A stretch of 64,000 nt of DNA from an uncultured bacterium (GCA_963768835.1 CAVYJB010000002.1:72230-136229), one strand, 5' to 3'; shown: positions 2,371 through 59,577, counted from the stretch's first letter. A program made the numbers and translations. The notes: generated by a model from the sequence alone, not told the origin.

Positions 2371-4826
2371 ATGAGCGAGAAAGAAAACGAAAAACCAAAA
2401 TCGGCGAACCCGGGAGGGCGCGTGGATGCGCGCGAGATCACCGACGAACTCCGCGAATCGTACCTCGATTACGCGATGTCGGTCATTGTGGCGCGCGCCA
2501 TCCCCGACGTGCGGGACGGACTGAAGCCGGTGCAGCGCCGCATCCTCTGGGCGATGTGGGACATGGGGCTCACCCACAGCGCGAAGTTCAAAAAATCCTC
2601 GAACGTAGTGGGTGAGGTTCTCGGGAAGTATCATCCGCACGGCGACATGGCGGTCTACGACGCGCAGGCCCGCATGGCCCAGGACTTCTCGCTCCGCTAC
2701 CCCTTGATCGACGGCCAAGGAAACTGGGGCTCCGTTGACGGCGACGCGCCGGCCGCGATGCGGTACACCGAAGCCCGGCTCACGAAGATGGCGGGGGAGC
2801 TTCTCCTCGACATCGAGAAGGAGACCGTGGAGTGGGTGCCGAACTACGACGCTCACGCGAAGAGCCGCGCTATCTCCCGGCGAAGCTTCCGAACCTCCTC
2901 CTGAACGGCACCGTCGGCATCGCTGTCGGCATGGCGACCTCCATTCCTCCGCACAACCTCGGGGAGGTGGCGGACGCCCTTCTTCATCTTATGAAGGAGC
3001 CGGACGCGGACGTGAAGGATCTCATGCGAGTTCATCCCGGGGCCGGACTTCCCGACCGGGGGCACCATCTACGATCAGAAGGCGCTCGAGGAGGCGTACG
3101 CACCGGCAAGGGTTCCATCACCATCCGCGCGGTCGCCGAGATCGAGGAGCGGAAGAAGGGAGCTTCCAGATCATCGTGACCGAGATACCGTACCAGGTGA
3201 ACAAATCGGACCTCATCACGAAGATGGCGGAGCTCGTGCAGGAAAAGAAGATAGAGGGCATCCGCGACCTCCGCGACGAGTCCGACCGCGACGGCCTCCG
3301 GATCGTCGTCGAGCTCAAGGGCGACGCCGCCCCCAGAAAATCCTGAACCAGCTTTTCGAATACACGGAGCTTCAGAAGAAGTTCTATCTGAACATGCTCG
3401 CGCTCATGGAGGGCTCCAGCCCCGGATGCTTTCTCGCTCGGAGGTGCTCCGGAATACCTGGCGCACCGCAAATCGTCATCCGCCGGCGGACGCGAGTTCG
3501 ACCTCAAGAAAGCGCAGGAGCGCGCGCACATTCTCGAGGGTCTCTTAAGGCGCTGGACGCCATCGACAGGGTCATCGCCGACCATCAAGAAATCAAAGGA
3601 CCGCGAGGACGCTAAGACAGAACTTGATGAGAACTTCTAAGATCACGGCGATACAGGCGGACGCCATCCTCGAGATGCGCCTCCAGACCCTCGCCGCGCT
3701 CGAGCGCGAGAAATGGACGAAGAGCTCAAGGAGAAGCGGAAGCTGATCGAGGAGCTGGACGCTTATTTTGAAAAGCCGAAGCGGATCCTCGACGATCATC
3801 GGGAAGGAGCTCAGGCCTCTCAAAAGACGCGTTCCCGAGGGCCGGCGGACGAAGATCGTGCCACGGGCTCAAGGAGTTCAATGAGGAGGATCTCAGTCGC
3901 TTGAGGAGGCGGTCATCGTCTCACGCAGGACGGCTACATCAAACGCATGCCGCCTACACGCTTCAGGCCCAGCGCGCGGCGGCAAGGGGCTCATCGGCAT
4001 CGAACTCAAGGAAGAGGACCAGATCCATCAGATTCTCGCGCGACACGCACGACAACATCCTGTTCTTCACCGACGGCGGCAGGGTGTTCCAGACGAAAGC
4101 CTACGAGATTCCGGTCGCGGCCCGCACACCAAGGGGAGTCGATCCACAACTTCCTCGACGATCCCGGCCGACGAAAAGGTGAGCGCCATCGTGAGCTACG
4201 ACCGAGGCGAAAAAAGCAGGACTCCTCGTGATGGCGACGCAGGAGGGCATCGTGAAACGGACCGGCTTGCCGACTTCGAGAACGTGCGCCGGACCGGCAT
4301 CATCGCCATCAACCTGAAGGGCAGGGACCGCCTGCGATGGGTCGGGCACTCAGGCGGGAAGGACCAGGTCGTCGTGTATCGGTGCGCGGACGCGCCATCC
4401 GTTTCAAGGAAAAGGACATTCGTCCGATGGGCCGCACCGCGGCGGGCATCCGCGGCATCCGCCTCGGCAAGGGGGATATGGTGAGCCGGGCTTGATATAA
4501 TAAAGAGCGACCGGAGCCGCGAAGTCCGAACGGCTGCTCGTCGTCATGGGGAAGGGGTTCGCGAAGCAGACGTCACTTAAGGAGTACAAGCTCCAGCATC
4601 GCGGCGGCGCGGGATCCTGACCGCCAAGGTGACCCCGAAAACAGGCGCGGTGATCGCGGTCGCGATCGTGAACGATGCCACCGAGGAGGTGCTCGCGTTC
4701 TCCTCGAAGGGACAGGCGCTCCGGACCCGCCTCAGCGACATCCGGACGGCGGGGAGGGCGACCCAGGGAGTCCGCATCATGGACCTGGGGGAGGGCGATT
4801 CCCTGATCGGCATTGTCTGCCTCTAA
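2371..4826 (+). pseudogene. gyrA: DNA gyrase subunit A, disrupted by multiple frameshifts
   Basis: GyrA motifs ([71 protein letters not shown]-terminal beta-pinwheel repeats) appear in order across at least 8 successive ORF fragments in all three + frames over ~2.45 kb. This matches a full-length ~818-aa GyrA interrupted by many single-base indels. Confidence 0.8.
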
Positions 4827-9546: not shown

Positions 9547-9806
9547 GGTACCCTCCTTTCCAACTTTTGTCGTGATTCTCGGTATTCATTTTCCAAATCT
9601 TTCTGCCGCCCCTTCTTCCGTTTTATCCAACGGCTATTGTAGCGATACTCGAGAATTATGTCAGCAAGATTCCCACTAATCTCCCCTGCATCTCGTACAA
9701 CTCGAGAGAGCAATCCCTTGAGACTGGCCAGGGCTCTACGAAAGAATCTTTGAATTCTGCTGTTGCTTACTTTCTCTATCCATTGCTCCAGCTGGTTCCG
9801 TGTCAT
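9543..9806 (-). CDS. small basic hypothetical protein
   Basis: 87-aa ORF whose stop overlaps (ATGA) the start of paralog B; no recognised domain. Confidence 0.25.
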   Translation of the reverse strand: MTRNQLEQWIEKVSNSRIQRFFRRALASLKGLLSRVVRDAGEISGNLADIILEYRYNSRWIKRKKGRQKDLENEYRESRQKLERRVP

Positions 9807-9925
9807 AATTTCCTCGCTCCAGTTAACGGTATTGTTTACAAATTCCTGCCTTGATTAGAGCATTGTAATGCAAGCTTGTCAAATACTAACGCGGCGGCAG
9901 GATGTAGGTCCCGGGGGGAGATTGA

Positions 9926-10951: not shown

Positions 10952-11814
10952 TACCTCCTTCCAATTGCGCTCGCAAGCTCTTTCGCGAACGCTGGTATGA
11001 ATTTAAGTAAGAACTCGATCGCCAAATCGACGATTCCAAACGCTTCCCAGTTGTCTTTGACCTTGTCCCACACAGACGACTGAGGAGTAGCTGTTGCGGT
11101 AGCCGTTGCTCCGGTACCCGCTCCAGGCGCCGCCGTTGGCGTAACCTGCGGACGGGTTCTCGGACGCTTGGCATAGAATTCTCCGAAACGTTGCGGTCTC
11201 TGCTTCCAGTGCCGCCACGCCAGCCGCCACGCTCCCTTGACCTCAGGCCAGAAATGCAGGCAAAAGATCAGAACTGAGAGAATGCAGGCGATCGGAACGC
11301 TGACAAATGCAGCGATCCACCAAAACCAGCTTCCTGTCTTTTCGCTCGTCGTTGGTACTGCCGGAGATTTGGGCGGTTCCGTCGGTGCCGTTTCTCTTCT
11401 CACCTCATACCTTTGCGCATGAGATTTGTAGGAGAGCACTGTCGGATTCTCTACCCAGCCCGGCTTCACAACTTCTTGCACGCCCTGTACGCCGAGTGGC
11501 ACTCCGGGTTCGCATAGGAATGCGGCCAGAAAGAGCACAAGGACTATCAGCCACAAAACAAGAGTCCATCCCCACCACGAGAGATTGCGTAGAAAACGAT
11601 ATGTTCTGTGAAACACCCCGTCGATGAACCCGGACGCTCCTTTGAGCACTCGAACGATTCTCCGACGTGGTGCCATTTGCCGCTGCTGTGCCGCCTGCAT
11701 GGGAGGTCGCTGACGATTGGACCACCGTTGCAGGAACCAGACGGTTCCCACAAAGAGTACGAGCGCGCAGGAAAGCGTGAGATCTATCCAGAACCAGGAA
11801 ATAGACATGACCAA
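10951..11814 (-). CDS. hypothetical polytopic membrane protein
   Basis: 287 aa with several Trp-rich TM helices; the stop overlaps the start of paralog A by 1 nt; no recognised domain. Confidence 0.45.
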   Translation of the reverse strand: MVMSISWFWIDLTLSCALVLFVGTVWFLQRWSNRQRPPMQAAQQRQMAPRRRIVRVLKGASGFIDGVFHRTYRFLRNLSWWGWTLVLWLIVLVLFLAAFLCEPGVPLGVQGVQEVVKPGWVENPTVLSYKSHAQRYEVRRETAPTEPPKSPAVPTTSEKTGSWFWWIAAFVSVPIACILSVLIFCLHFWPEVKGAWRLAWRHWKQRPQRFGEFYAKRPRTRPQVTPTAAPGAGTGATATATATPQSSVWDKVKDNWEAFGIVDLAIEFLLKFIPAFAKELASAIGRR

Positions 11815-12461: not shown

Positions 12462-12542
12462 AGCTTGTCTCCTTTCTAAGTAAGTAGTTGTTGTATTTGT
12501 GCTTTCAAACTTCTAATGCGATTATATCACTATAATACCGAT

Positions 12543-12571
12543 TTGTCAAACATAACCGGTGGTGGTATGAT
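12543..12571 (+). promoter_or_regulatory. candidate sigma70-type promoter for tRNA-Leu
   Basis: TTGTCA, a 17-nt spacer, then TATGAT, about 30 nt upstream of the tRNA 5' end. Confidence 0.3.
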
Positions 12572-14165
12572 AGAAAAACCCCAGATGGAATAAGGGGTTT
12601 GGGCAGGTGGCGGAACTGGCAGACGCATACGGTTTAGGGCCGTACGCCGAAAGGCATGTGGGTTCAAGTCCCACCCTGCCCACAAGAGTAGAGACTAAAT
12701 CAGTGTTAGAAAAATTCAGCCGCGCTTCGCGGAGCGAAGCGTAAGGTGGGGTGGGGGTAAATTCAATACGACGATTTTTAAGAAACGTGTTCGAGCCGGA
12801 AATTTTTTGGGCAAGAGATTTTTTGAGGGTAAGATCGGTCGAAACGGCAGTTTCGCCAATGTTTGCCGCATCATCTATCCAGCCACGTAGCGGTTCGAGC
12901 CACGCTAGATACCCTCGGTTCAGTCCGGCCATTTTCTCCTCCAGCGACCTTTTGTGCAGGAGAAGCTTCGCCTTCTCCGAGCGGTAGGTATTCCGCTCAA
13001 TATCTTCCTCAAGATAGGCGTCAAAAAGCCGCTGGAGTTTTTCGGTAACGGACGCTATCTCATTGCGGAGGACTTGGTTCTCGCGTATGGGAGATCGGGC
13101 GGCATCCTGCTCGTCCTTGTCCGCCAGCTTGTAGAGTTCGACCGCCCAATCCGAGGGCAACGCAAACTCTTTGAATATATTGGAAAGCTGATCCGATAAA
13201 ACTTCTTCTCTAATGTAGGGCTGAGAGCATATGACCCCTTTCTTACTGCAACGATAGTAAGTGCGACCTTTCTGAAATTCTGCGGTGATCATCCGTCCGC
13301 ACTCGCCGCAACGGAACAGCCCACACAACGGCTTCGGTTGTTTTGTTTTTACCTGCGGCTTGCTCCGCTCCTTCAAGACGGCTTGGACTTTATCGAATAA
13401 CTGCTTGGAAATTATCGGTTCGTGTTTACCTTCATACAACTCTCCGGCATAGCGGAACAGGCCGCAGTAAAAAGGATTTGATAGGAACACTGTAATCTGG
13501 TCGCGCTTCCACGCTCTGCCGCCCTCGCTCATCCATCGGTTGCTCGCTTTGGTTTTGACGCCCTTGTCGAAAAGAAATTTTGAAATATCTTCGAGACGAG
13601 ACTGGTTCTTGGAATACAATTCAAAGGCTTCGCGGACGACGATCGCTTCTTTCTCATCCACGACAATCTGTTTCCTCCGCACGTCATTTATGTAACCCAA
13701 CGGGGCAACGCTCGGATATTCGCCGCGCTTTGCTTTCTCGTGAAGGCCACGTTTCGTGTTCGCGGAAAGATCGCGGATATACTGGTTCGCCATCCCGAAC
13801 TCGACGCCAATCATAAGGACGTTATCGGAAGGATAGTAACTCCGGTCGCTCGTGAGAATGCGCTTTATGACATCCTGCTGAAGCAACCACTGGACGCGGG
13901 CGGCATCCATCGGGTTACGGGCGAGACGATCCAGTTTCCAGCACAAGATACCCTGCGCTTCTCCCCGCTCAATCTTATCCATCATCCCGTTAAAGACAGG
14001 ACGACCGGGCATCTTGGCGGACTGCTTCTCGATAAATTCTCCAATGATGTGGAGCTTCTCTTGCCTAGCCAAAGCACGCAGAACGGAAAGCTGGTCTTCG
14101 ATGGAACGAACTTGTTTGTCCTCGACATCGGTAGATTTTCTAGCGTAGAGGAAGTAGTTGGGCAT
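12546..14165 (-). CDS. large serine recombinase (resolvase catalytic domain, recombinase domain, zinc ribbon, coiled-coil)
   Basis: N-terminal 'YARKSTDVEDKQ...SIEDQ' resolvase motif with the catalytic Ser; 'CGLFRCGECGRMITAEFQKGRTYYRCS' zinc ribbon; the ORF as tracked reads through repeat X and antisense across the tRNA gene, so the true 3' end is uncertain. Confidence 0.8.
   Translation of the reverse strand: MPNYFLYARKSTDVEDKQVRSIEDQLSVLRALARQEKLHIIGEFIEKQSAKMPGRPVFNGMMDKIERGEAQGILCWKLDRLARNPMDAARVQWLLQQDVIKRILTSDRSYYPSDNVLMIGVEFGMANQYIRDLSANTKRGLHEKAKRGEYPSVAPLGYINDVRRKQIVVDEKEAIVVREAFELYSKNQSRLEDISKFLFDKGVKTKASNRWMSEGGRAWKRDQITVFLSNPFYCGLFRYAGELYEGKHEPIISKQLFDKVQAVLKERSKPQVKTKQPKPLCGLFRCGECGRMITAEFQKGRTYYRCSKKGVICSQPYIREEVLSDQLSNIFKEFALPSDWAVELYKLADKDEQDAARSPIRENQVLRNEIASVTEKLQRLFDAYLEEDIERNTYRSEKAKLLLHKRSLEEKMAGLNRGYLAWLEPLRGWIDDAANIGETAVSTDLTLKKSLAQKISGSNTFLKNRRIEFTPTPPYASLREARLNFSNTDLVSTLVGRVGLEPTCLSAYGPKPYASASSATCPNPLFHLGFFYHTTTGYV
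12573..12600 (-). terminator. intrinsic terminator on the minus strand (antisense to the tRNA leader)
   Basis: On the minus strand, an aaacccc/ggggttt hairpin is followed by TTTTTC. It would stop minus-strand read-through from the recombinase gene, yet it lies inside the recombinase ORF as tracked. Confidence 0.35.
12601..12682 (+). tRNA. tRNA-Leu (anticodon UAG), type II with long variable arm
   Basis: The sequence folds as a cloverleaf: acceptor GGGCAGG/CCTGCCC, anticodon stem TACGG/CCGTA with loop TTTAGGG (anticodon TAG), a long variable arm, T-arm GTGGG-TTCAAGT-CCCAC, and discriminator A; no CCA is encoded. Confidence 0.85.
12683..12837. repeat. inverted repeat X (~155 bp), partner at 15662-15815
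   Basis: Reverse complement of 15662-15815 with ~6 mismatches; encodes the C-terminal ~45 codons of the recombinase ORF. Confidence 0.8.
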
Positions 14166-14226
14166 GGGATATGTAACTTATAGTCTGTAGTCTTATTTTA
14201 TGCAACAACTAAAATAAAGTAAAGCA

Positions 14227-14433
14227 ATGGATAACATTCAGTTAAGAGTTGGCAAGAAAATTAAGGCGCTAAGAAGCGCAAAAGGCATCTCACAGGAAGC
14301 TCTAGCTTTTCGTTGCAAGCTACACAGGACTTATATAAGCGATATAGAACGAGGTCTACGCAACGTATCAATTAAGAATATTGAGAAAATAGCAAAGGCA
14401 TTACAGGTTCCCATAAACGAGCTACTCCCATAA
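14227..14433 (+). CDS. XRE-family helix-turn-helix transcriptional regulator (controller-protein-like)
   Basis: 68 aa; 'LRSAKGISQEALAFRCKLHRTYISDIERGLRNVS' is a canonical HTH_3 sequence; AT-rich gene. Confidence 0.75.
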   Translation: MDNIQLRVGKKIKALRSAKGISQEALAFRCKLHRTYISDIERGLRNVSIKNIEKIAKALQVPINELLP

Positions 14434-14435
14434 AT

Positions 14436-14810
14436 ATGGCTAAGATAAAAAAGACGAAAATAGAGACACCTGAAAAACACTTCGCCTCTGACGACAAAAA
14501 TATTTGCGTATATGAAATTTATCGTCGTTCGAAAAAGACGGTTTATTATCTACGAGGAACTCAAGCAAAACATCTTAGCAAGATAATCTTAAATGGTTTT
14601 GAGGGTATCCCTTCAGGACTCTATTTGAATAGAAATGGCTTTGGATTTGGTAAAAAAGGAGTCTTCCTCCTCTCTGCTCTGAAGGATCATCTGGCCGCCG
14701 GAAAGCTTCTAGAATTTATAATCTCAAATAAGAATAATAAGAAAGTCCAAAAAGGATCACTCAAGGTTTCAATCACCATTCCGTCTCAAGATGTTAAAAT
14801 TTACTCATAA
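14436..14810 (+). CDS. hypothetical protein
   Basis: 124-aa ORF starting 3 nt after the HTH gene stop; AT-rich; no recognised domain. Confidence 0.35.
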   Translation: MAKIKKTKIETPEKHFASDDKNICVYEIYRRSKKTVYYLRGTQAKHLSKIILNGFEGIPSGLYLNRNGFGFGKKGVFLLSALKDHLAAGKLLEFIISNKNNKKVQKGSLKVSITIPSQDVKIYS

Positions 14811-14950
14811 GACTCGGTCGCATAAACGAAGATAACAATAACGAACTGCGGACTACAGTTGGTTCATTTCTCAGCACGAAGTTTCCAAAGCACGTAAAGG
14901 TATCTACAGAAGATTTTGATGATTATAAAGGAGGAGAAGTTGCCGCGCTC

Positions 14951-15661
14951 TTGCGTAGAAAAAAGGTCGCCCAGAAGTTAAACGAAGAAGACTTCGAGTC
15001 TCTTAAGGGCTTTTTCCCTAAAATATTTGAGACCTCCTTAAAGGGTAAAAAAGGTGCTGTAAAAGCCGGACGCAACGCACTTATCAGAGATACTAAGAAA
15101 GTTACAGATCGAATTTTCCTAGATGAGGTGATTAAGGAGTTTGAAACTAACCTCTTAAAGAAAACTCTTTCAGAAGAAGACTGGCAGAAATTCCTCCATG
15201 ATAAAGTATTTAGATTCCTAGCTAACTACGTTACGTCTATCGAGAAACAAAATGTCAGTATTAGTGTGAGTTATCCAGATTTTGTTCTTGTAGATGTATA
15301 TGACTTTGTTGATGTTTTTGAAATAAAGAAACATGACGTTCAGTTATTAACTCTCGATGAGAGCCACGATAACTATTATTGGAAACCTGATGTTGCTAAA
15401 GCCATTGCACAAATTGAAAATTATATTGATGAAATCACCCGCAACGCCGATGATTATATTAAAGCTATCAAGCGTAAAAAGGGCATCGACATAAGAGTTG
15501 TGCGCCCCAGAGGATATATTATTGCTGGTACAAGTAAACAATTTAAGAATAAGAAAGAATCAGCAGATTTCAGAAAACTAGGAACCTCTTTGAAAAATAT
15601 CAGCTTTATTCTTTATGATGAATTGTTGGCAAACCTAAAGAATCTACGATCAAAACTCTAA
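14951..15661 (+). CDS. Shedu-like (DUF4263) PD-(D/E)xK nuclease-family protein
   Basis: 236 aa; the 'PDFVLVDVYDFVDVFEIKKHD', 'IAQIENYIDEI', 'VRPRGYIIAGT' and C-terminal 'ISFILYDELL' blocks match the conserved DUF4263 core of Shedu SduA proteins; the stop abuts repeat X'. Confidence 0.55.
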   Translation: MRRKKVAQKLNEEDFESLKGFFPKIFETSLKGKKGAVKAGRNALIRDTKKVTDRIFLDEVIKEFETNLLKKTLSEEDWQKFLHDKVFRFLANYVTSIEKQNVSISVSYPDFVLVDVYDFVDVFEIKKHDVQLLTLDESHDNYYWKPDVAKAIAQIENYIDEITRNADDYIKAIKRKKGIDIRVVRPRGYIIAGTSKQFKNKKESADFRKLGTSLKNISFILYDELLANLKNLRSKL

Positions 15662-15815
15662 TGATCTTACCCTCAAAAAATCCGTTGCCCAAAAAATTTC
15701 CGGCTCGAACGCAGTTCTCAAAAATCGTCGTATTGAATTTACCCCCACCCCACCTTACGCTTCGCTCCGCGAAGCGCGGCTGAATTTTTCTAACACTGAT
15801 TTAGTCTCTACTCTT
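15662..15815. repeat. inverted repeat X' (partner of 12683-12837)
   Basis: Reverse complement of repeat X; together with repeat Y it forms a ~430-bp block whose minus-strand reading equals Y'-CCACAA-X. Confidence 0.8.
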
Positions 15816-16104
15816 GTGGCGTTATACCGATCCGCTCGAGGGTTCTTCGAGGGTCAGACCTAACCATTTTACCCCTACATTCCGAGACTGTTTACCCCTT
15901 CATTTACCCCTTCACTCGCCCTGCGTCCATTTGAAGGGGTAGCAAGTCCAGTTTGCCCTGCAAACGCTGATCTTTTTGACCCTCGTCCGGCAAAATCACA
16001 AGTCCTACTTCACTCCGCTGAGCTCCCCCCAAAGATGTTTGCTCAGCCCCTCAGCCTGCTGGCTTCGGGGCTTCGCGTATGGCGCGCCCAAATTCCTCCC
16101 CCAC
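15816..16104. repeat. inverted repeat Y (~290 bp), partner at 18868-19158
   Basis: Near-perfect reverse complement of 18868-19158; contains three tandem AGGGGTAAA-like 9-mers (read on the minus strand). Confidence 0.8.
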
Positions 16105-16146
16105 AAAAATTTTATATAACGCTCGCGGCCGCGTGGCCGAGAGCGG

Positions 16147-16590
16147 TCAAATAGAAACTGTTTTGATTTTTCTAAGCTGATCAATATATTCCTTCGATAA
16201 GCCGCACTCTTCCGCACCCTCCAAAATCATATCCATATATTTTCGACTAGGAGGGGCAAGTTCTCTGCCAGTTGCGTAATACACAATAGCTTTAATAGAT
16301 TTATCTCCTTCTATGAAAACATCTATCTCTTTACGATTGTATGATTTTGGAAAACCTTCATAACAATCCAGAGCAGCACGATTTGCTTCCGAAATTTCGA
16401 ACAGTCCTCCGCTAACTACAGCACCGGAGAACTCAACAACATTTGCACCAGCTCCTCCCCAAGATTTTGAGTGTCCATCAAAAATCAGTTTATAGTCCCG
16501 AAGATCAGCCTTATATAAGAAGGTATTCCCCGGACATCGCTCATTCATCTGTTTATGGCTCATATTTGAACCATAGGCAAAATACTTCAT
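16147..16590 (-). CDS. gamma-glutamylcyclotransferase-like (AIG2/GGCT family) protein
   Basis: 147 aa; N-terminal 'YFAYGSNMSHKQMNERCP' is the AIG2/GGCT signature; lies 13 nt downstream of the GmrSD-like gene on the same strand. Confidence 0.65.
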   Translation of the reverse strand: MKYFAYGSNMSHKQMNERCPGNTFLYKADLRDYKLIFDGHSKSWGGAGANVVEFSGAVVSGGLFEISEANRAALDCYEGFPKSYNRKEIDVFIEGDKSIKAIVYYATGRELAPPSRKYMDMILEGAEECGLSKEYIDQLRKIKTVSI

Positions 16591-16603
16591 TCTCGATGAT
16601 TAC

Positions 16604-18355
16604 TTAAAAATGCCAAACCTTGTAATAGGCGTTGTGAGCTAACTTACCGGCTCTCATGGCTATCTCATCAGCTCCCCATCCCTTTGTCTTAATATGACTT
16701 TCAAACTCTTCGATGAAAGTCTTCACATGGGGCAAATTAGCAAAACTTTCCTTATTTTTCAGTATCTCTATTTTTTCGAGTGGCATTTTATCTTGGAGCT
16801 TTGAATTGGTGTGTAAGCTAATGATTAGCAAGTTCCCAATGTTATCAGCTATATCAGGATCAGACAGCTCTGCTCTTTTAGAGTTCGGATAAAAATGCTC
16901 AACGTTGAAGCTCCGCCTAAATCCTTTCCTGTCCAAGAAAAACAACTGAGTCTTTTGTCCGCCGACTCTATCAAAATTATTTATGCGATCAATGACATAA
17001 CTGATTAATGGAAGATCGGCCGAGGTAGCATATGAAAGATCCTTAAATTTAGACTCAAACTCTTCGTAACTCGCTTTCTTATCTTCAAGGGTCTTGATAA
17101 GTTCGCTGCAATTCTTTTTGAAATCCTTTACCTTATTAAATCTCGGAGCAAAATCCATATACGTCTTCTCGATCTCGTTACCTACGCGCTCACAGATAAC
17201 ATTGTTAACAAAATGGTATTTCTCAAAAGTTTCGATCAGAGATCTAAGTAGCTTCGCCATCTCGGCGTTGTCTCCATATTTTTCCTGATATGCTTTTACG
17301 GCTGAATAGATAATCGGGTAGGGTTGCGTAACGCGGAAGAGCCTTAGAGCTTCAATGCTCAAATAAATATCATGGCAATAATGTTGATTCCTAGATATTG
17401 CCAAACATCCGTTGGCTTCAAAGTAACTTCTGAGATCTTCTTCTCTTCCCTGCCGCAAGATCGCATAAAAAGTGGAAAAGTCGCTGAGGTCTTTTACAAA
17501 AATCTCGGGCTTGAGTTCTGATGATTGCTTCTGAAGATTTTTGAATATATCTCTTTTTTGTACAGCTCCCTTTCTGGCGACCAGATAATATTTCAACATC
17601 CTCATCATCGTCGTATCTGCATTTTCCACTATTTCATCCCATGTTTCCTCCATGCCTTCGATTTCAGCTGAGAAAAGATCCGCCTTTAAGAGATCGGCCG
17701 CATTAAGTTCTAAGCCACGCGCATTTGCCCTTTCAAAAAGATCGAATACATCCAGTTCGCCATCAACCTCTATCTTAATGACGAATGAGCTATAAAGTTT
17801 CCTCAATAAGGTTGATATATCTTCAAGTTTTTTAAGTGATGATATCCGCTCGCGGAATAATTCGTATACGGGCTTAATCTTGTTAACTTGTCGCTTAACA
17901 GACCTCTTTCCTAGCTTCGCAGGAAAATCTCCCTTCCAATCATCCCTTACGATATATTCAAAAATATCACGTACCGCTATTGATGCACCTAATCTTGCAC
18001 CTGTCATCTCACCAGTAGTGGAATCGCTGAAAGTTAATTTTTCTGTAATCTTGCTGGCAAGCTTATTCTCTTTTATAGCGATTGCTCTAGCCCGACACGC
18101 AATGAGCAATAGACAGATCGTCGTTATTCTCTGCTGGCCATCGACGATAGATATTTCGCCACGCCCCATGTTCTTAACGTCGAGAACAATATTGCCGAGG
18201 TATATTCCCTGATCGGACGAGATAACATCATTCCATAGGTCATCTGCTTCGTCTTTACCCCAATCAAAACCGCGTTGGTACGAAGGAACCATAAAACGAG
18301 CGTTGCCTATATTTAGGAGTTGCTCAATGGTTTGCCGTGATGGAGTTATGGCCAT
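16604..18355 (-). CDS. DUF262/DUF1524 (GmrSD-family) putative modification-dependent nuclease
   Basis: 583 aa; N-terminal 'IVDGQQRITT' (DUF262, ParB-like NTPase motif) and C-terminal 'NVEHFYP...IGNLLIISLHTN' (DUF1524 His-Me finger). Confidence 0.75.
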   Translation of the reverse strand: MAITPSRQTIEQLLNIGNARFMVPSYQRGFDWGKDEADDLWNDVISSDQGIYLGNIVLDVKNMGRGEISIVDGQQRITTICLLLIACRARAIAIKENKLASKITEKLTFSDSTTGEMTGARLGASIAVRDIFEYIVRDDWKGDFPAKLGKRSVKRQVNKIKPVYELFRERISSLKKLEDISTLLRKLYSSFVIKIEVDGELDVFDLFERANARGLELNAADLLKADLFSAEIEGMEETWDEIVENADTTMMRMLKYYLVARKGAVQKRDIFKNLQKQSSELKPEIFVKDLSDFSTFYAILRQGREEDLRSYFEANGCLAISRNQHYCHDIYLSIEALRLFRVTQPYPIIYSAVKAYQEKYGDNAEMAKLLRSLIETFEKYHFVNNVICERVGNEIEKTYMDFAPRFNKVKDFKKNCSELIKTLEDKKASYEEFESKFKDLSYATSADLPLISYVIDRINNFDRVGGQKTQLFFLDRKGFRRSFNVEHFYPNSKRAELSDPDIADNIGNLLIISLHTNSKLQDKMPLEKIEILKNKESFANLPHVKTFIEEFESHIKTKGWGADEIAMRAGKLAHNAYYKVWHF

Positions 18356-18586
18356 AATTACCTTCCATGTTATCAGAAAAAGGGCTTTTTGGTAAACCAG
18401 ATTTCAAGGTACCTAAATAGCCTCTCGCTCACGCATGGGGGTAAGAGCAAGAACCTTTAACCACGCAAAACTTCACAAAGAATGTCCCCTTGTGGTAGTA
18501 CGGAGGTAGCCTCAAGATGAGACTAGAACCGATACTATACGTGCCGCTGCGGAGTCGACGGCGGTGATAAATCAATTGAAGATACA

Positions 18587-18817
18587 ATGGAAGACAAATT
18601 AGTAAAAAGGCGTACCGAGCTTTTAGATCAAATAGAATTGTTGGCCAGAGAGCGTGGCATTGTCGCCATAAGAGATACGGCACTTCTCAACGCTAAGAAC
18701 TACGCACGAGAGCAGTTAGAACACGGCTTTGATAAAGGGCTTACCCAAGATGAACTTGAGATTGAAGGACTTGAAAGACACCTTCGCTCCATGAGGAATC
18801 AGGGTAGACAACAATAG
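18587..18817 (+). CDS. small hypothetical protein
   Basis: 76-aa charged ORF upstream (divergent) of the GmrSD-like gene; no recognised domain. Confidence 0.2.
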   Translation: MEDKLVKRRTELLDQIELLARERGIVAIRDTALLNAKNYAREQLEHGFDKGLTQDELEIEGLERHLRSMRNQGRQQ

Positions 18818-18867
18818 AGCCAAAAGACGTGGAGTTGCCACCTCTCCGGCGCGCCAAAAGGAGGGGT

Positions 18868-19158
18868 TGGGGGAGGAATTTGGGCGCGCCATACGCGAAG
18901 CCCCGAAGCCAGCAGGCTGAGGGGCTGAGCAAACATCTTTGGGGGGAGCTGAGCGGAGTGAAGTAGGACTTGTGATTTTGCCGGACGAGGGTCAAAAAGA
19001 TCAGCGTTTGCAGGGCAAACTGGACTTGCTACCCCTTCAAATGGACGCAGGGCGAGTGAAGGGGTAAATGAAGGGGTAAACAGTCTCGGAATGTAGGGGT
19101 AAAATGGTTAGGTCTGACCCTCGAAGAACCCTCGAGCGGATCGGTATAACGCCACAAC
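18868..19158. repeat. inverted repeat Y' (partner of 15816-16104)
   Basis: Reverse complement of repeat Y; it ends at ...ataacgCCACAA, after which flanking chromosomal sequence begins. Confidence 0.8.
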
Positions 19159-19166
19159 TTCGGTCA

Positions 19167-19211
19167 AAAGAAACCCGCCTTCGGCATGCCGAGAGGCGGG
19201 TTGGGTTTATT
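19167..19211 (-). terminator. intrinsic terminator (bidirectional-looking) at the right edge of the island
   Basis: aaacccgcc / ggcgggttt hairpin with U-runs on both strands, immediately downstream of the 19240-19762 gene on the minus strand. Confidence 0.5.
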
Positions 19212-19239
19212 GGTCGCAAGAACGATTTTGGGGGGACGC

Positions 19240-38209: not shown

Positions 38210-39979
38210 ATGGCAAAGATAAAGATACCAAAAGCCTACCAACCCTCCGATGAGGATCTTTCGAACGTCATTGCCCCCGCGGGGCTCGAGGTGGGCCCCG
38301 CAAACCTGAAAATTGGGGACTACTTCGCAAAGACTGTCTTTGTTTATACTTACCCGCGCTATATCTCGAGCGGTTGGTTCACCCCCATCGTCAACATGCC
38401 GCAGATGATGGACATCTCCCTTTTCATCCATCCAATGGACACTGCGCTCGCGCTTCGCAACCTCCGCAAGAAGATTACGGAAATTCAGGCGGAAATCACC
38501 GAGCATGAGGAAAAGGGGATTGTGCGCGACCCCATTCTTGAGACGGCCTACGAAGACATCGAAAACCTCCGAGATGCTCTTCAGCAGTCGCGCGAGAAAC
38601 TTTTCGAAGTTGGCATCTACCTCACTATCTACGGACGGACTCCCGAAGAGCTCGCGAAGATTGAAAGTACGGTTCAGTCCACCCTCGAAGCGAAGCTTGT
38701 GTACACGAAACCAGCGCTTTTCCGACAACTCGAGGGGTTCGAATCCGTTCTTCCCGAGGGGCACGATTCGCTCGCTATCCACACGCCCCTAAACAGTGCT
38801 CCTGTTTCCTCCATCTTCCCGTTCGTTTCCCCCGACCTTACCTCGGATCGAGGTATCCTCTACGGCGTGAATATGCACAACAATAGCCTCATTATTTTCG
38901 ACCGTTTTTCGCTCGAGAACGCGAATTCGGTTGTTTTTGCGAAGTCCGGCTCGGGAAAATCGTATGCAACGAAGCTCGAGATCCTTCGCTCTATGATGCT
39001 TGGAACGGATGTTATCGTCATTGACCCGGAAAATGAGTATCAGAACTTGGCGAATGCTATAGGAGGAAGTTACTTCAAGATATCGCTCACCTCCCAGAAC
39101 CACATCAACCCTTTCGATATCCCTGTCATCCCAGAAGGAGAAGAGCCGGGCGATGTTTTCAAGTCTCACGTCTTAAACCTCACCGGCCTTGTAAAGCTCA
39201 TGCTCGGCACTGTCACGCCCGAGGAAGACGCGCTCCTCGACCGCGTCATCACGGAAACCTATGCCTCCCGCGACATTACGGCTGAGAGTTTCGGAGGGTC
39301 TCAGGCTCTCACACCACCACTTCTTGGAGATCTGCAAACTATTCTTGAGAACACTGAGGGGGGGCGTGGAATCGCACAGCGGCTGGATAAGTTCACCCGC
39401 GGCTCCTATGCGGGTTTCACAAACGCCCCCACAAATGTCGATATCGCGAATCGTCTGATTGTGTTTTCCATTCGGGACCTCGAGGAAGAGCTGCGGCCCG
39501 TCGCAATGTACATTGTCCTCAACTTCGTATGGAGTCTTGTGCGCTCCCAGTTAAAGCGCCGGCTGCTTATTATCGACGAGGCGTGGTGGATGATGAAATA
39601 CCGCGATTCGGCGTCGTTCCTTTTCGGTCTTGTGAAACGCGCTCGGAAATACTACCTCGGTATCACGACTGTTACGCAGGATGTCGAGGACTTCGTGAAA
39701 TCGGAGTATGGTCGCCCCATCATCACAAATTCTTCGCTTCAGCTGCTCCTTAAACAATCCCCAACCTCTATCGGCGCCGTGGGTGAGGCCTTCGATCTTA
39801 CGGATGGAGAACGGGCGCTGCTCCTCGAGGCGGGGGTGGGGGAAGGCCTTTTCTTCGCCGGCCTCAAGCACGTCGCTATCAAGGTGGTGGCTTCTTACAC
39901 CGAGGATCAAATTATTACTACAAACCCGGAACAGATGATATCGATTAAAGGTCTCCAGAAATCGGCTCCGCCCGCCTGA
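38210..39979 (+). CDS. VirB4-family T4SS ATPase (C-terminal ATPase domain)
   Basis: 589 aa; Walker A 'FAKSGSGKSY' and Walker B 'RLLIIDEAWWMM', VirB4/TrbE-type. Confidence 0.8.
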   Translation: MAKIKIPKAYQPSDEDLSNVIAPAGLEVGPANLKIGDYFAKTVFVYTYPRYISSGWFTPIVNMPQMMDISLFIHPMDTALALRNLRKKITEIQAEITEHEEKGIVRDPILETAYEDIENLRDALQQSREKLFEVGIYLTIYGRTPEELAKIESTVQSTLEAKLVYTKPALFRQLEGFESVLPEGHDSLAIHTPLNSAPVSSIFPFVSPDLTSDRGILYGVNMHNNSLIIFDRFSLENANSVVFAKSGSGKSYATKLEILRSMMLGTDVIVIDPENEYQNLANAIGGSYFKISLTSQNHINPFDIPVIPEGEEPGDVFKSHVLNLTGLVKLMLGTVTPEEDALLDRVITETYASRDITAESFGGSQALTPPLLGDLQTILENTEGGRGIAQRLDKFTRGSYAGFTNAPTNVDIANRLIVFSIRDLEEELRPVAMYIVLNFVWSLVRSQLKRRLLIIDEAWWMMKYRDSASFLFGLVKRARKYYLGITTVTQDVEDFVKSEYGRPIITNSSLQLLLKQSPTSIGAVGEAFDLTDGERALLLEAGVGEGLFFAGLKHVAIKVVASYTEDQIITTNPEQMISIKGLQKSAPPA

Positions 39980-56928: not shown

Positions 56929-58611
56929 TTAAGAACGTTCGCCCTTCGGCCAGACAAGAGGTCCTGTTACATCTTCCACCTCCTTGAATGTCGTAATGCC
57001 CTGGAAAACCTTTAGGACGCCATCCTCCTGCATTGTAGTCATCCCTTGCTTGCGTGCCAAGTCCTTAAGCTCGATTTCGGTCGGATTTCGATAAATCGCC
57101 TGCTCTATAACGTCGCTTACCAGGAAAAGCTCAAAAATAGAAGTCCGTCCTCGGTATCCGATGCCGCCACACATCTCGCACCCCTTAGCTTCAAAAAGCG
57201 TTGCGTTTTTGAAATGACCAGCGTCTGCGCGGGATGGCAGCGAGGAGAGGAAAGTGCTGACGCGCCCCTCCCATTCCTTGGTTAGGGGGACGGGGACGCG
57301 GCAATGGGGGCAGAGGATTCGGACGAGTCGCTGAGCAATTACGAGAGAGAGGGCGGGGCCCAGGATTTGTGGCTTAGCGCCAAGATCCAGGAGGCGAGGG
57401 ATAGCTCCTACTGCGTCGTTTGTGTGAAGGGTGGAAAAAACGAGGTGGCCCGTGAGACTGGCATTCATAGCGATGTCGGCTGTTTCGGCATCCCGTATCT
57501 CACCAACAAGAATGACGTCCGGGTCCTGTCGGAGAATGGAGCGGAGGCCGTTCGCGAAGGTGTAGCCCGCCTCGGCATCAACCTGTGTCTGAGAAATACC
57601 GGCGATGTGATATTCGATCGGGTCTTCGACTGTGATGATTTTAATCTCAGGAGAAAATATGTTCTGAAGGAAAGCGTAAAGCGTGGTCGTTTTTCCGGAG
57701 CCAGTGGGGCCGGTGTTTAGGATAAGTCCGTTGGGTTCTCGGAGAACCTGTTTTACGATCTCGAGATCGTCGGGACGCCACCCCAAATCCTCAAGATTCA
57801 CCTTAAGAGCGTGTGGATCAAGGAGTCGAAGGACCACTGTTTCCCCATACTCGGAAGGAATAATAGAAGTCCTAACTTCAATGTCGCGATCGGAGAGCGA
57901 AACAGTGAAACGCCCATCCTGTGCTTGGTCGTGGATGTTAAGTTTCAGGTTTGAAAGAAGTTTGATGCGGGTAATGATTGAGTTATAGGCGTGCAAAGGG
58001 AGCTCATCTGTCGCTGAGTGGAGAACACCGTCCATACGAACGCGGAGCGCTCCGCTGGTCTCTCCAGGTTCTAGGTGAACATCGGATGCGGCGAGGGCGA
58101 TAGCTCCGCCGAGGACCACCTCGAGGAGTTCCGTAGTGAGAGGGCTTTTAAAGTCATGGATAGAACGTCGCAGATTGTCGAGTGTCCGAATCTCCTCCTG
58201 AAGTTTTGTTAGGCGCGCCTTATCAATCTCTATTCGGCCGCTGATCTCGTGGCTTTCCTTTCCTACGTACCGGTAGAAGGCCCACGCGTGCTCGAGCCCG
58301 CTCAAGGAACACACCGCCACCGTCACGGTATAGGTTTCCCCCAAGCGGTCAATGACCGCCTTAGTTTCCGGTCGATGTGGATCGAGCGCCGCAACAGTCA
58401 AATCCTTCCTCACGAGCTGGAGTGGCACCAAAAATGCTGCGCGCGCCTCTGCTTCTGGCACAAGCGCCATCGCCTTCAGTTCCGTGGGTACCTTAGCGGA
58501 GACGAGGTTTAGGTAGGGGAAACCAAGGCTGATAGCCCGACGCTCTGCATCGGCCTCCTCGGCCTGCCGGCGCTGCTGCCGCATCTTCTCGAGGAGCTCC
58601 TTGGTGTCCAT
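56929..58611 (-). CDS. GspE/PilB-family type II secretion or type IV pilus assembly ATPase
   Basis: Walker A 'GPTGSGKTT', Asp box, Walker B, His box, and C-terminal tetracysteine 'CPHC...CEMC'; start taken at MDTKELLEKM. Confidence 0.8.
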   Translation of the reverse strand: MDTKELLEKMRQQRRQAEEADAERRAISLGFPYLNLVSAKVPTELKAMALVPEAEARAAFLVPLQLVRKDLTVAALDPHRPETKAVIDRLGETYTVTVAVCSLSGLEHAWAFYRYVGKESHEISGRIEIDKARLTKLQEEIRTLDNLRRSIHDFKSPLTTELLEVVLGGAIALAASDVHLEPGETSGALRVRMDGVLHSATDELPLHAYNSIITRIKLLSNLKLNIHDQAQDGRFTVSLSDRDIEVRTSIIPSEYGETVVLRLLDPHALKVNLEDLGWRPDDLEIVKQVLREPNGLILNTGPTGSGKTTTLYAFLQNIFSPEIKIITVEDPIEYHIAGISQTQVDAEAGYTFANGLRSILRQDPDVILVGEIRDAETADIAMNASLTGHLVFSTLHTNDAVGAIPRLLDLGAKPQILGPALSLVIAQRLVRILCPHCRVPVPLTKEWEGRVSTFLSSLPSRADAGHFKNATLFEAKGCEMCGGIGYRGRTSIFELFLVSDVIEQAIYRNPTEIELKDLARKQGMTTMQEDGVLKVFQGITTFKEVEDVTGPLVWPKGERS

Positions 58612-58719
58612 TGGTAGCTCCAGTGTAGCGCGTTTCTTATCCACCAGCAAGGAAAATATTGATTTTTTCTCATGTGTCTTGCTGGCGCACCGGCCGGAAG
58701 AGGATACAATAAAAGACGC

Positions 58720-59577
58720 ATGATCATCTTGCTTCACGGCGAGGACTCGTATGGACGGGAGCGTAAGCTCAAAGACCTCGTCCGTGAATATCGTTCAAAA
58801 CACGTCGCAGCCGATCTTCTCTCCGCGGATCTCGATGATGATCCCGGGGCATGGGTCAAGGTCCGCGACTTTCTTTCACAACCATCACTCTTTGTAGACT
58901 CAAAGATTGCTGTGATCCGCGGGGGTGCTTCAGTAAACGAGAAAGGTTGGGCTGCGGCGCTACGGAGCGAGCTCGAAAGTGCGCGGACCTTCATTGTGAT
59001 TTCAGACCAGGGAACTCCTCTCAGGGCCCTCGCTTTTCTTCTTAAACCCCCCGTTCTTCAGCAAACATTCCCCTTGCTTGAAGGATCTACGTTGAGCACC
59101 TTTGTTCGGAAAGAGGCGGCCGTCCGGAAACTTGCGTTTGCGGGCGAGGGCCTTAGGTTTTTTCTAGAATACGTTACAGGCTACGATGCCGATCCGGGTG
59201 ATCCGAGAAAAAAACGAGGAATGGACAGGGGCTGGCTTATTATAAACGAGCTGGAAAAGGTAAGACTTGCAGGGTTCGAGGAACCGATTTCAGAGGAGGA
59301 CCTCCGAAGTCTTCTCCGATGGTCGGCAGATTCTGCGCTCTTCTCGATAGCTGGAAAGATTCTTCGTGGTTCGACTCCTGGAATGAAACTTATCAGTCTT
59401 GAGACGGCGCTCCGTCGTAATGACGCACCCCATGTCTTCAACCTCGTTTCGTATCAAGCCTCAGGCGCGCTGGCGACGTCACTAGCCCACTACGACATTT
59501 CTATCAAAAGCGGCGGCCTGGAATACGAGGAGGCGCTGACCAGTTTTGCGCTCCAGAACGGAACTCCCTCCGAATAA
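58720..59577 (+). CDS. holA: DNA polymerase III delta subunit-like protein
   Basis: 'MIILLHGEDSYGRERKL' resembles the HolA N-terminus; length ~285 aa; weak overall similarity. Confidence 0.45.
   Translation: MIILLHGEDSYGRERKLKDLVREYRSKHVAADLLSADLDDDPGAWVKVRDFLSQPSLFVDSKIAVIRGGASVNEKGWAAALRSELESARTFIVISDQGTPLRALAFLLKPPVLQQTFPLLEGSTLSTFVRKEAAVRKLAFAGEGLRFFLEYVTGYDADPGDPRKKRGMDRGWLIINELEKVRLAGFEEPISEEDLRSLLRWSADSALFSIAGKILRGSTPGMKLISLETALRRNDAPHVFNLVSYQASGALATSLAHYDISIKSGGLEYEEALTSFALQNGTPSE

Follow-up and report, generated by a model that had tools for sequence, protein, structure and literature searches.

A 6.5-kb island of defence genes, located directly after a tRNA-Leu gene in a stretch of 64,000 nt from an uncultured bacterium (GCA_963768835.1 CAVYJB010000002.1:72230-136229; hereafter the window, all coordinates being counted from its first letter), belongs to a large and apparently undescribed family of tiny mobile elements of Patescibacteria. 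Positions 12686-19157 probably correspond to an integrated, small, cargo-carrying integrative element, with a large serine recombinase (LSR) as its only dedicated mobility gene and with two attP attachment sites in inverted orientation. An LSR integrative element of this kind, with a conserved and unprecedented two-attP architecture and an attP that mimics tRNA, appears to be new: full-text searches of the literature found no description of the family or of a natural inverted attP, and returned only engineered inverted-attP cassettes and the tycheposons.

Architecture of the island

A previous reading of the window made from the sequence alone (the sequence-only reading) had described two nested pairs of inverted repeats, X/X' and Y/Y', joined at a common core, and both pairs were recovered. 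The X/X' arms (12680-12836 and 15663-15819) are 157 nt long and match at 151 of 157 positions, in keeping with the identity of about 96% initially given, with the correction that the arms include the core; the six mismatches (12780, 12785, 12786, 12788, 12815 and 12816) are all distal, and 12680-12779 is perfect. The Y/Y' arms (15814-16103 and 18868-19157; 290 nt), announced as near-perfect, match at 289 of 290 positions, with a single mismatch at 16020/18951. The pairs have a 6-nt overlap, the core, which reads CCACAA at 12680-12685, TTGTGG at 15814-15819 and CCACAA at 19152-19157, and the strings earlier quoted for these three junctions are exact. Since the remaining inverted repeats in the same 9 kb do not exceed 25 nt, at 72-85% identity, X/X' and Y/Y' are far beyond chance. 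The repeats, the cores and the recombinase gene are arranged as follows, the two halves of attB being designated B and B', and those of attP, P and P':

12546..14165, minus strand: LSR open reading frame (ORF) of 539 aa (Pfam Resolvase, Recombinase and Zn_ribbon_recom)
12601..12682, plus strand: tRNA-Leu(TAG) (ARAGORN; Rfam RF00005, 51 bits)
12680..12685, plus strand: core CCACAA at attL, between the tRNA and X
12686..12836, minus strand: X, P' arm of attP and also the last ~50 recombinase codons (..LKKSLAQKISGSNTFLKNRRIEFTPTPPYASLREARLNFSNTDLVSTLV), conserved up to the core in the family alignment and structured (predicted local distance difference test, pLDDT, ~83-85)
15663..15813, plus strand: X', inverted copy of X, a non-functional copy of the recombinase 3' end
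15814..15819, minus strand: core of the internal, inverted, intact attP (TTGTGG on the plus strand)
15820..16103, plus strand: Y, inverted P arm, with the P half-site of the family (CGTTATACCGATCCGCTCGAGG)
18868..19151, plus strand: Y', P arm of attR, with three AGGGGTAAA 9-mers (19060-19103)
19152..19157, plus strand: core CCACAA at attR, between Y' and B'
19158..19212, plus strand: B' arm, the original trailer of tRNA-Leu (direct sequence reading)

The last three nucleotides of tRNA-Leu (acceptor CC plus the discriminator A) are the first three of the core, and the tRNA forms the B arm of attL. The integrated element measures 6,472 bp between equivalent core positions. X' begins 1 nt past the stop codon of the Shedu gene, and the B' arm comprises a hairpin rich in GC (AAACCCGCC..GGCGGGTT) and then a T-rich run, a structure missed by a simple terminator scan. 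The three tandem 9-mers reported for Y were found in each Y arm, as AGGGGTAAA in Y' and as TTTACCCCT at 15868-15911 in Y, and nowhere else in the 64 kb (6 found against 0.39 expected); the paired GGCGCGCC palindromes beside the end of Y' are present as well. The AT-rich character attributed to the gene interior holds for 14200-18400 (GC 0.34-0.44, compared with 0.55-0.69 in the right flank and 0.47-0.57 in the left flank) but not for the recombinase gene, at ~0.50. Similarly, X is a genuine repeat but not an intergenic one, being the 3' end of the recombinase coding sequence. Four features of a tRNA-associated island are found here: an insertion at the 3' end of a tRNA gene, a foreign composition, an integrase located at one edge, and variable cargo.

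The recombinase and its coding end

The recombinase exhibits the complete domain set of LSRs (PF00239, PF07508 and PF13408), with Y4, R9, K10 and S11 invariant in the alignment. Its AlphaFold2 (AF2) model comprises long helices at 338-441 and is matched by Foldseek to the SPbeta, Bxb1, phiC31 and A118 integrases (E 1e-22 to 1e-13), the value of 1e-22 being reached with the full-length SPbeta, Bxb1 and phiC31 integrases. No stop codon occurs in the ORF before 12546, so that it crosses X, the core and the antisense strand of the tRNA; the conserved protein corresponds to residues 1-~494 (12684-14165), and residues 495-539 form a tail encoded by the antisense strand of the tRNA and by the spacer upstream of it. 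The best 120 of 5,303 homologues matched at E<=1e-20 cover 84-99% of the query, typically about 93%. They align to ..SExxLxxxLV exactly at the core and then differ, with tails such as G[IVFL]EPT, which is the translated T-arm of an antisense tRNA. In the AF2 model, the X-encoded residues 443-488 form a confident helix, β-hairpin and helix (pLDDT ~83-85), and the tail past the core is disordered (pLDDT <50). Because the homologues align to the core and the X-encoded part is folded, the 3' end of the recombinase gene serves as the P' arm of attP, the disordered tail being all that integration alters; judging from alignment and model, X encodes the last folded ~50 residues of the LSR. In the attP configuration, the tail would be ALYRSARGFFEGQT, encoded by Y.

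The attachment sites

In the window and in 14 other complete loci of the family, attL (B joined to X), the internal site (P joined to X) and attR (P joined to B') share a core of 2-10 nt, reduced to CA in L150 and located at the discriminator/CCA end of the tRNA; a further locus, L176, has the same layout, its junctions being left out of the alignment. An exchange between attP and attB at a short, non-palindromic core, giving rise to hybrid attL and attR sites as LSRs do, is what these junction sequences point to. Two proposals of the sequence-only reading are supported by the same logic in the 14 other loci, namely the integration of a circular element, with an attP made of Y', core and X, into an attB at the tRNA-Leu 3' end, and the presence of an internal, intact, inverted attP which splits the island into two repeat-flanked segments. 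Segment 1 contains the recombinase and the Shedu gene, and segment 2 the remainder of the cargo. The predicted attB consists of the discriminator end and trailer of tRNA-Leu (..ctgcCCACAActtcgg..) and the predicted attP reads ..ataacgCCACAAgagtag.., with a distal GGCTCGAACC motif about 113 nt out.

In 98 loci of the family, ARAGORN calls a tRNA directly next to the recombinase 3' end, and these tRNAs represent 15 amino-acid types. The P arm is non-coding and conserved in about 80 loci (TGGTG followed by nnTnTATACAACnnnGCTCGAACCTATTTTAGC), and it contains the T-loop motif of tRNAs (GGTTCGA), displaced outward from the crossover by 4 nt relative to its position in the tRNA itself: TCGAAC, the antisense T-loop in the B arm, occurs at offset 13 in B versus 17 in P, and the shift of +4 nt was found in 46 of 48 loci. 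Since the P arm mimics the T-arm of tRNA and the B' arms are not conserved among loci, a broad range of tRNA targets is accounted for. The shift is reminiscent of the zinc-ribbon recognition motif, which in the LI/A118 integrase reportedly lies ~5 bp further out in the attP than in the attB half-sites.

Distribution of the two-attP architecture

Loci were gathered from genomes (80) and from metagenomes (80), together with six loci of named homologues, and 164 were analysed, most of them from metagenome-assembled genomes (MAGs) of Patescibacteria. An inverted copy of the recombinase 3' end, located upstream of the gene, occurs in 112 of the 164 loci, and in 58 of the 78 loci for which 3 kb or more of upstream sequence were available. 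The X/X' repeats are 55-237 nt long (median 138), with a median identity of 97.3%, and 32 pairs are identical. Since fewer than 400 nt separate X' from the recombinase start in 42 loci, the minimal segment 1 consists of the recombinase gene alone. The complete double-repeat layout was recognized in 15 loci (L008, L043, L044, L049, L052, L063, L075, L077, L078, L086, L087, L120, L121, L150 and L176), corresponding to elements of 3.7-10.1 kb in total. Y' is cut off by the contig end in L085, the closest relative (93% aa identity), and many k141 contigs stop 136-138 nt past the core, as expected if Y were repeated there too. In 18 loci devoid of a Y/Y' pair within 10 kb, Y' was not found, except for a short match in L079, and the cargo of these loci may exceed the fetched flank.

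Relatives with 75-93% identity reside in tRNA-Leu(CAA), tRNA-Val(TAC) and a tRNA-like gene that was not called, and their cargo differs in both slots; from these sequences we infer that the family is mobile. Within elements, the repeat copies are nearly identical (Y/Y' at least 99.6% in 11 of the 15 complete loci) though the recombinases diverge to 47%, which argues for gene conversion.

The X' copy is apparently retained as DNA and not as a spare reading frame, because frameshifting indels occur in 43 of the 80 non-identical X/X' pairs and the codon differences comprise 56 synonymous versus 71 nonsynonymous changes. In 30 of these 43 frameshifted pairs, an insertion of 8-12 nt, TTTG(A/T)ATTT(T/C), occurs in the X' copy only, e.g., in L010 (3405-3573), L014 (3819-3986) and L017 (7919-8080). 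It is located in the FGSNL codons (TTCGGC^TCGAACCT), about 113-116 nt from the core, at the very nucleotide where a short class of repeats (~114 nt) terminates; some Y arms (L059) contain a similar GGCTTTGTATTCTTG string.

Depending on the locus, segment 1 is found in one or the other orientation. The recombinase reads into the P arm and not into a tRNA in nine loci (L031, L088, L091, L106, L134, L137, L143, L156 and L164). The 12.6-kb L134 contig is organized as Ybar_a-core-X'-segment 1 (recombinase inward)-X-core-Y_b-segment 2-Ybar_c-core-B'-tRNA-Thr, i.e., with a flipped segment 1 plus a tandem junction, and since its X and X' are 90.7% identical, this orientation was not a choice of the assembler. 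In L023, a copy of the X' type, with the distal motif, adjoins tRNA-Thr, and the recombinase is located 5.3 kb away and points outward. From the sequences of L023 and L134, both orientations of segment 1 exist among relatives. The 5.3-kb L156 contig (x-S1-xbar-core-y-S2-ybar) has both ends inside the repeat, and is compatible with a circle.

A possible mode of mobility

Insertion would proceed by conservative site-specific recombination between attB and attP at the end of tRNA-Leu, with either attP copy being usable. As the end of the recombinase ORF is the P' arm, the ORF would run into the antisense tRNA after insertion, and the T-loop motif at +4 in the P arm would let one protein read both sites and target many tRNAs. 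The free form would be a circle of 6,472 bp, in which two inverted attP repeats of about 440 bp separate two unique segments, segment 1 with the recombinase, the helix-turn-helix (HTH) gene and cargo slot 1, and segment 2 with cargo slot 2. Recombination between the repeats could flip the segments and give rise to orientation isomers, arm-to-arm gene conversion would keep the repeat copies identical, and excision would result from attL x attR recombination. With respect to the role of the second attP, an orientation-free integration or flip-flop is ranked first, followed by a correction between the repeat copies that would preserve the att arms and the 3' end of the recombinase gene, and, lower, by a regulatory binding site and by the folding of single-stranded DNA.

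Several points weigh against this integrative element with two usable attP copies. Recombination of attP with attP is not known for LSRs, so that enzyme-driven flipping is a conjecture. No directionality factor that would account for excision is conserved: across the minimal elements only the recombinase is conserved, and the HTH gene is conserved in the clade of the window alone; recombination directionality factors are nevertheless too diverse for one to be excluded here. X' is missing from 20 loci whose upstream sequence extends over 3 kb or more. The tRNA-proximal orientation prevails ~10:1 over the flipped one, which is unexpected if the attP copies are equivalent, and no closed circular contig was found among the loci, L156, L137 and L143 being compatible with a circle. 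Finally, X' is not kept coding, as indicated by the frameshifts and codon changes given above, which argues against the two copies alternating as recombinase 3' end by homologous exchange.

Two other roles were considered for X'. The role of a spare coding 3' end, alternating in use through homologous flipping, is weakened by the 43 frameshifted pairs out of 80 and by the near-neutral codon changes. An operator of the recombinase promoter is plausible in the minimal elements, in which 27-350 nt separate X' from the start codon, but not in general, the distance being 1.5 kb in the window.

Alternative explanations

A programmed invertible switch, in which a fixed island has its segments flipped by the recombinase acting as a Hin/Gin-like invertase to change the expression of the defence cargo, the recombinase or its C-terminal tail, integration being a matter of history, is rather unlikely. 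It would account for the inverted sites with the recombinase core that bracket each segment, for the position of the recombinase inside an invertible segment, like hin, and for the two orientations of segment 1 among relatives; moreover, the orientation alters both the recombinase tail (tRNA-encoded versus ALYRSARGFFEGQT) and whether read-through from the tRNA is antisense. However, the brackets are symmetric over 150-400 bp, so that no local junction between promoter and gene changes by flipping. Terminator-like hairpins occur in X (12732-12720), X' (15767-15779) and Y (15951-15965), but the scan for promoters and terminators gave counts that are not above those of shuffled sequences (12 vs 10.8 and 9 vs 6.4), and the symmetric hairpins of X and Y are for this reason no more than suggestive. 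In addition, the protein is a full LSR (~494 aa) and the repeats measure 114-400 nt, instead of the ~190 aa with a C-terminal HTH, the 26-34 bp sites and the enhancer of small invertases, the orientation of the segment 2 genes is mixed between loci, and close relatives reside in different tRNAs and hosts with different cargo, as members of a mobile family do.

It is improbable, though conceivable, that the inverted attP copies serve to let a single strand fold into a dumbbell, in which X pairs with X' and Y with Y' to form a double-stranded attP stem. Such a strand would enter via the competence/type IV pilus machinery of Patescibacteria, and a donor fragment would yield a self-primed integration substrate in a new host, without prior excision or flanking homology; on paper, integration, replication and attL x attR resolution would regenerate the order B-x-S1-x'-y-S2-y'-B'. 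The situation would be analogous to the attP hairpins of CTXphi and to the attC sites of integrons, here with a serine recombinase.

There is little to recommend an accretion relic, according to which the X'-core-Y block was left by a second, related element, with a functionless internal site. Tandem arrays do occur (L134), the X' pseudo-copy is often frameshifted, and the X' substitutions of the window match residues of homologues (AV as in P0001 and P0004). Site-specific accretion, however, yields direct and not inverted repeats, and the inverted layout occurs in 112 loci, whose breakpoints coincide to the nucleotide (GGC^TCGAACC) and whose arms are nearly identical within each element, a pattern not expected of a decaying relic; the median identity of 97% suggests that the X' copies cluster with the recombinase of their own element.

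An assembly artefact, by a collapsed repeat or an inverted chimeric join, is most improbable. The sequence-only reading had named misassembly as a finding that would overturn it, inverted chimeras are known, and the L143 contig, with its terminal inverted repeat of 1,550 nt, may be one of them. Short-read contigs of two samples nevertheless agree with the window. In the Logan assembly of ERR11594402, the unitigs match every unique part at 100% and end at the repeat borders: L001 covers the left flank up to 30 nt into the repeat, L003 covers segment 1 with the diverged parts of X and X', and L002 covers segment 2. Each unique unitig runs into one and the same repeat at its two ends, so that the unitig graph permits only the double-repeat layout, integrated or circular. 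The stretch from the recombinase through the HTH gene and Shedu to X', including the Shedu-X' junction, was reproduced independently in a second sample, ERR10755942 (L004). Furthermore, X and X' differ at 6 positions and are therefore distinct sequences, and the same layout occurs in independent long contigs and complete MAG chromosomes (L008, L086, L087 and L176).

Equally hard to sustain is a pair of neighbouring transposon-like elements, X..X' and Y..Y', bounded by terminal inverted repeats and each inserted at a CCACAA target: each block is indeed bounded by inverted repeats ending in the same 6 nt, but no target-site duplications occur, the cores being part of the repeats and common to both blocks, segment 2 is devoid of a transposase, the junctions fit attB x attP in every complete locus, and the Y arm is a conserved recombinase half-site which is always joined to X'.

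Relation to known systems

The integrative element proposed here shares with the LSRs of phages and of integrative and conjugative elements (phiC31, Bxb1, A118/LI, SPbeta SprA and TP901-1) the domain architecture, the fold, the short non-palindromic core and the hybrid attL/attR sites, together with a similar outward shift of the attP motif (+4 nt here). In contrast to these, its LSR is at most 32% identical to phage or plasmid LSRs and targets the generic 3' end of tRNAs (15 types), its P' arm is its own coding 3' end, a second inverted attP is conserved, and phage or conjugation genes are lacking. A phage or plasmid origin was considered and rejected: the best match in IMG/VR has 33% identity, those in INPHARED and PLSDB have at most 32%, and neither the window nor the 65 cargo ORFs collected from 14 complete loci include replication, transfer or capsid genes.

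The yeast 2-micron plasmid (FLP/FRT, with inverted repeats of 599 bp) is organized like the putative circle, with two segments, the target in the repeats and the recombinase in one segment; two isomers are expected for it, and both orientations are seen here among different relatives. It differs in that FLP is a tyrosine recombinase acting on identical sites, in a replicon that uses inversion for copy amplification, whereas the island family integrates into tRNA genes and has no replication genes among the same cargo ORFs or in the window, and its enzymatic flipping is conjectural. In the Mx8 intP/attP and SSV1-type integrases, which are tyrosine recombinases with tRNA targets, attP lies inside the integrase gene and integration alters its 3' end, a functional C-terminal region being replaced in Mx8 and the gene being split in SSV1. 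Unlike these, only a disordered tail after the last folded residue is altered here, and neither of those systems has an inverted spare attP. The invertases Hin, Gin and Cin likewise have inverted sites that bracket a segment, with hin inside it, but are small and require an enhancer plus Fis and sites of 26-34 bp. The engineered phiC31 inverted-attP cassettes (MiMIC, used for recombinase-mediated cassette exchange) have the same site geometry, but cassette exchange needs paired attB sites, which are absent here. Finally, the Prochlorococcus tycheposons are small cargo elements that target tRNA genes in streamlined genomes, where they constitute a hotspot of defence and niche functions; tyrosine recombinases are used by 910 of the 937, many have replication genes, and no inverted attP architecture was described for them (bioRxiv 10.1101/2020.12.28.424599).

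Patescibacteria represent a large share of bacterial diversity, and gene exchange by their tiny genomes is poorly known. In this respect, the family looks like a major vehicle, of 3.7-10 kb and with a single mobility enzyme, which settles after almost any tRNA and has two exchangeable slots for accessory genes, among them those for defence, restriction-modification and aminoacyl-tRNA synthetases. The anatomy of its att sites illustrates the retargeting of an LSR to a universal feature of RNA genes, with its own coding end as P' and a T-arm mimic shifted by 4 nt as P, and is relevant to LSR-based genome engineering and to genetics in uncultured lineages. The conserved, gene-converted, inverted spare attP is without counterpart in textbook LSR systems, and raises the question of the benefit of a second attachment site to an integrative element.

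Cargo genes and host

The division of the island into a recombinase/Shedu segment and a GGCT/GmrSD segment was retrieved as far as the gene contents are concerned, but the Shedu gene is split by a 1-nt frameshift. The genes other than the recombinase are as follows:

14227..14433, plus strand: HTH_3 / 'control protein' gene, divergent from the recombinase (profile and PADLOC calls)
14436..15661, plus strand: Shedu (SduA) gene, in two ORFs of 124 and 236 aa
16147..16590, minus strand: GGACT/AIG2-like gene of the gamma-glutamyl cyclotransferase fold, cargo of segment 2
16604..18355, minus strand: GmrSD-type restriction-like defence gene (DUF262/DUF1524; PADLOC HEC-06), cargo of segment 2
18587..18817, plus strand: ORF of 76 aa without family match, cargo of segment 2, also called in the Logan contig

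The HTH_3 gene (67-75 aa) is always divergent from the recombinase in the clade of the window (L085 5142-5348, L086 9731-9940, L087 9721-9948 and L176 9717-9920), and the same pairing with a recombinase occurs in L177 and L178. On this conserved arrangement, it is probably the regulator of the element, which suggests a candidate repressor or directionality factor despite its PADLOC label of restriction-modification 'control protein'. The frameshift of the Shedu gene results from a 1-nt deletion in an A-run at about 14796 (A4 instead of A5), and A4 is confirmed by the ERR11594402 short-read contig, from the sample of the window. The SduA_C domain is present (E 2e-26), but the intact SduA, with a DUF4263 nuclease domain, of a Shedu defence system is lacking in the window; in ERR10755942 (L004 659-1885), the gene is intact and encodes 408 aa. 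The frameshift could reflect a decaying defence gene or a slippage-prone on/off tract.

The 65 cargo ORFs of the 14 complete loci comprise DNA methyltransferases, class II aminoacyl-tRNA synthetases, radical-SAM/HydF and LemA/DUF2207 proteins, an ABC transporter, thymidylate kinase, GreA and peptidases; the cargo of L176 consists of a restriction-modification system and a GmrSD_N gene. Cargo of the GmrSD type is thus recurrent, paired with GGACT/AIG2 in the window (16147-18355) and located behind a methyltransferase and an MvaI/BcnI restriction pair in L176 (5253-8127).

Outside the typical loci, a homologue with about 60% identity (L177 6205-7815 and L178 340-1950) has neither a following tRNA nor a P arm, and no X' repeat. 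It adjoins a small terminase subunit, a peptidoglycan-binding protein and a second serine recombinase, so that some members reside in a phage-like context.

Other contigs have unusual structures. The P arms of L134 (637-863, 3978-4059 and 11031-11256) include a tandem accretion junction, Ybar-core-X', of two related elements, with arms ~85% identical. In the 4.65-kb L143, segment 1 lies within a perfect inverted repeat of 1,550 nt (1-1550 and 3102-4651) which starts with attP, corresponding either to a very long repeat or to a 'lollipop' assembly path. In L060, X and X' (9709-9842 and 11334-11482; 83%) both adjoin antisense tRNA-like sequence, with segment 1 between convergent tRNA genes, which could be the remnant of a second element or a product resembling cassette exchange.

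The search of the island for RNA families (Rfam) found the tRNA alone. A promoter-like TTGTCA-17-TATGAT sequence occurs on the plus strand at 12543-12571, 30 nt upstream of tRNA-Leu, and a perfect TTGACA-17-TATAAT, with an extended TG, is directed on the minus strand toward a gene for a 211-aa immunoglobulin-like protein, the two forming a back-to-back pair within 12521-12571. Read-through from the tRNA promoter would run antisense to the recombinase. A GC-rich GCGAAGC palindrome, located at 12716-12740 and 15759-15783 and at the same place in most loci, encodes the conserved ..YA(S/A)LR(E/A)AR.. motif and is followed by a T-run in the recombinase sense; GCGAAGC is an unusually stable DNA mini-hairpin, and the conservation may concern DNA or RNA structure besides the protein.

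The host is a Patescibacterium, the best matches of its PNPase being 67-68% identical to proteins of Patescibacteria, Jorgensenbacteria and Paceibacterota; PolA, PBP1A, MurE and PilB are encoded in the window as well. A VirB4-like ATPase (CD1110 family) and a PilB/GspE-type ATPase of the host are encoded at 38210-39979 and 56929-58737, and the presence of such DNA-uptake or transfer machinery bears on the spread of a gene-poor element.

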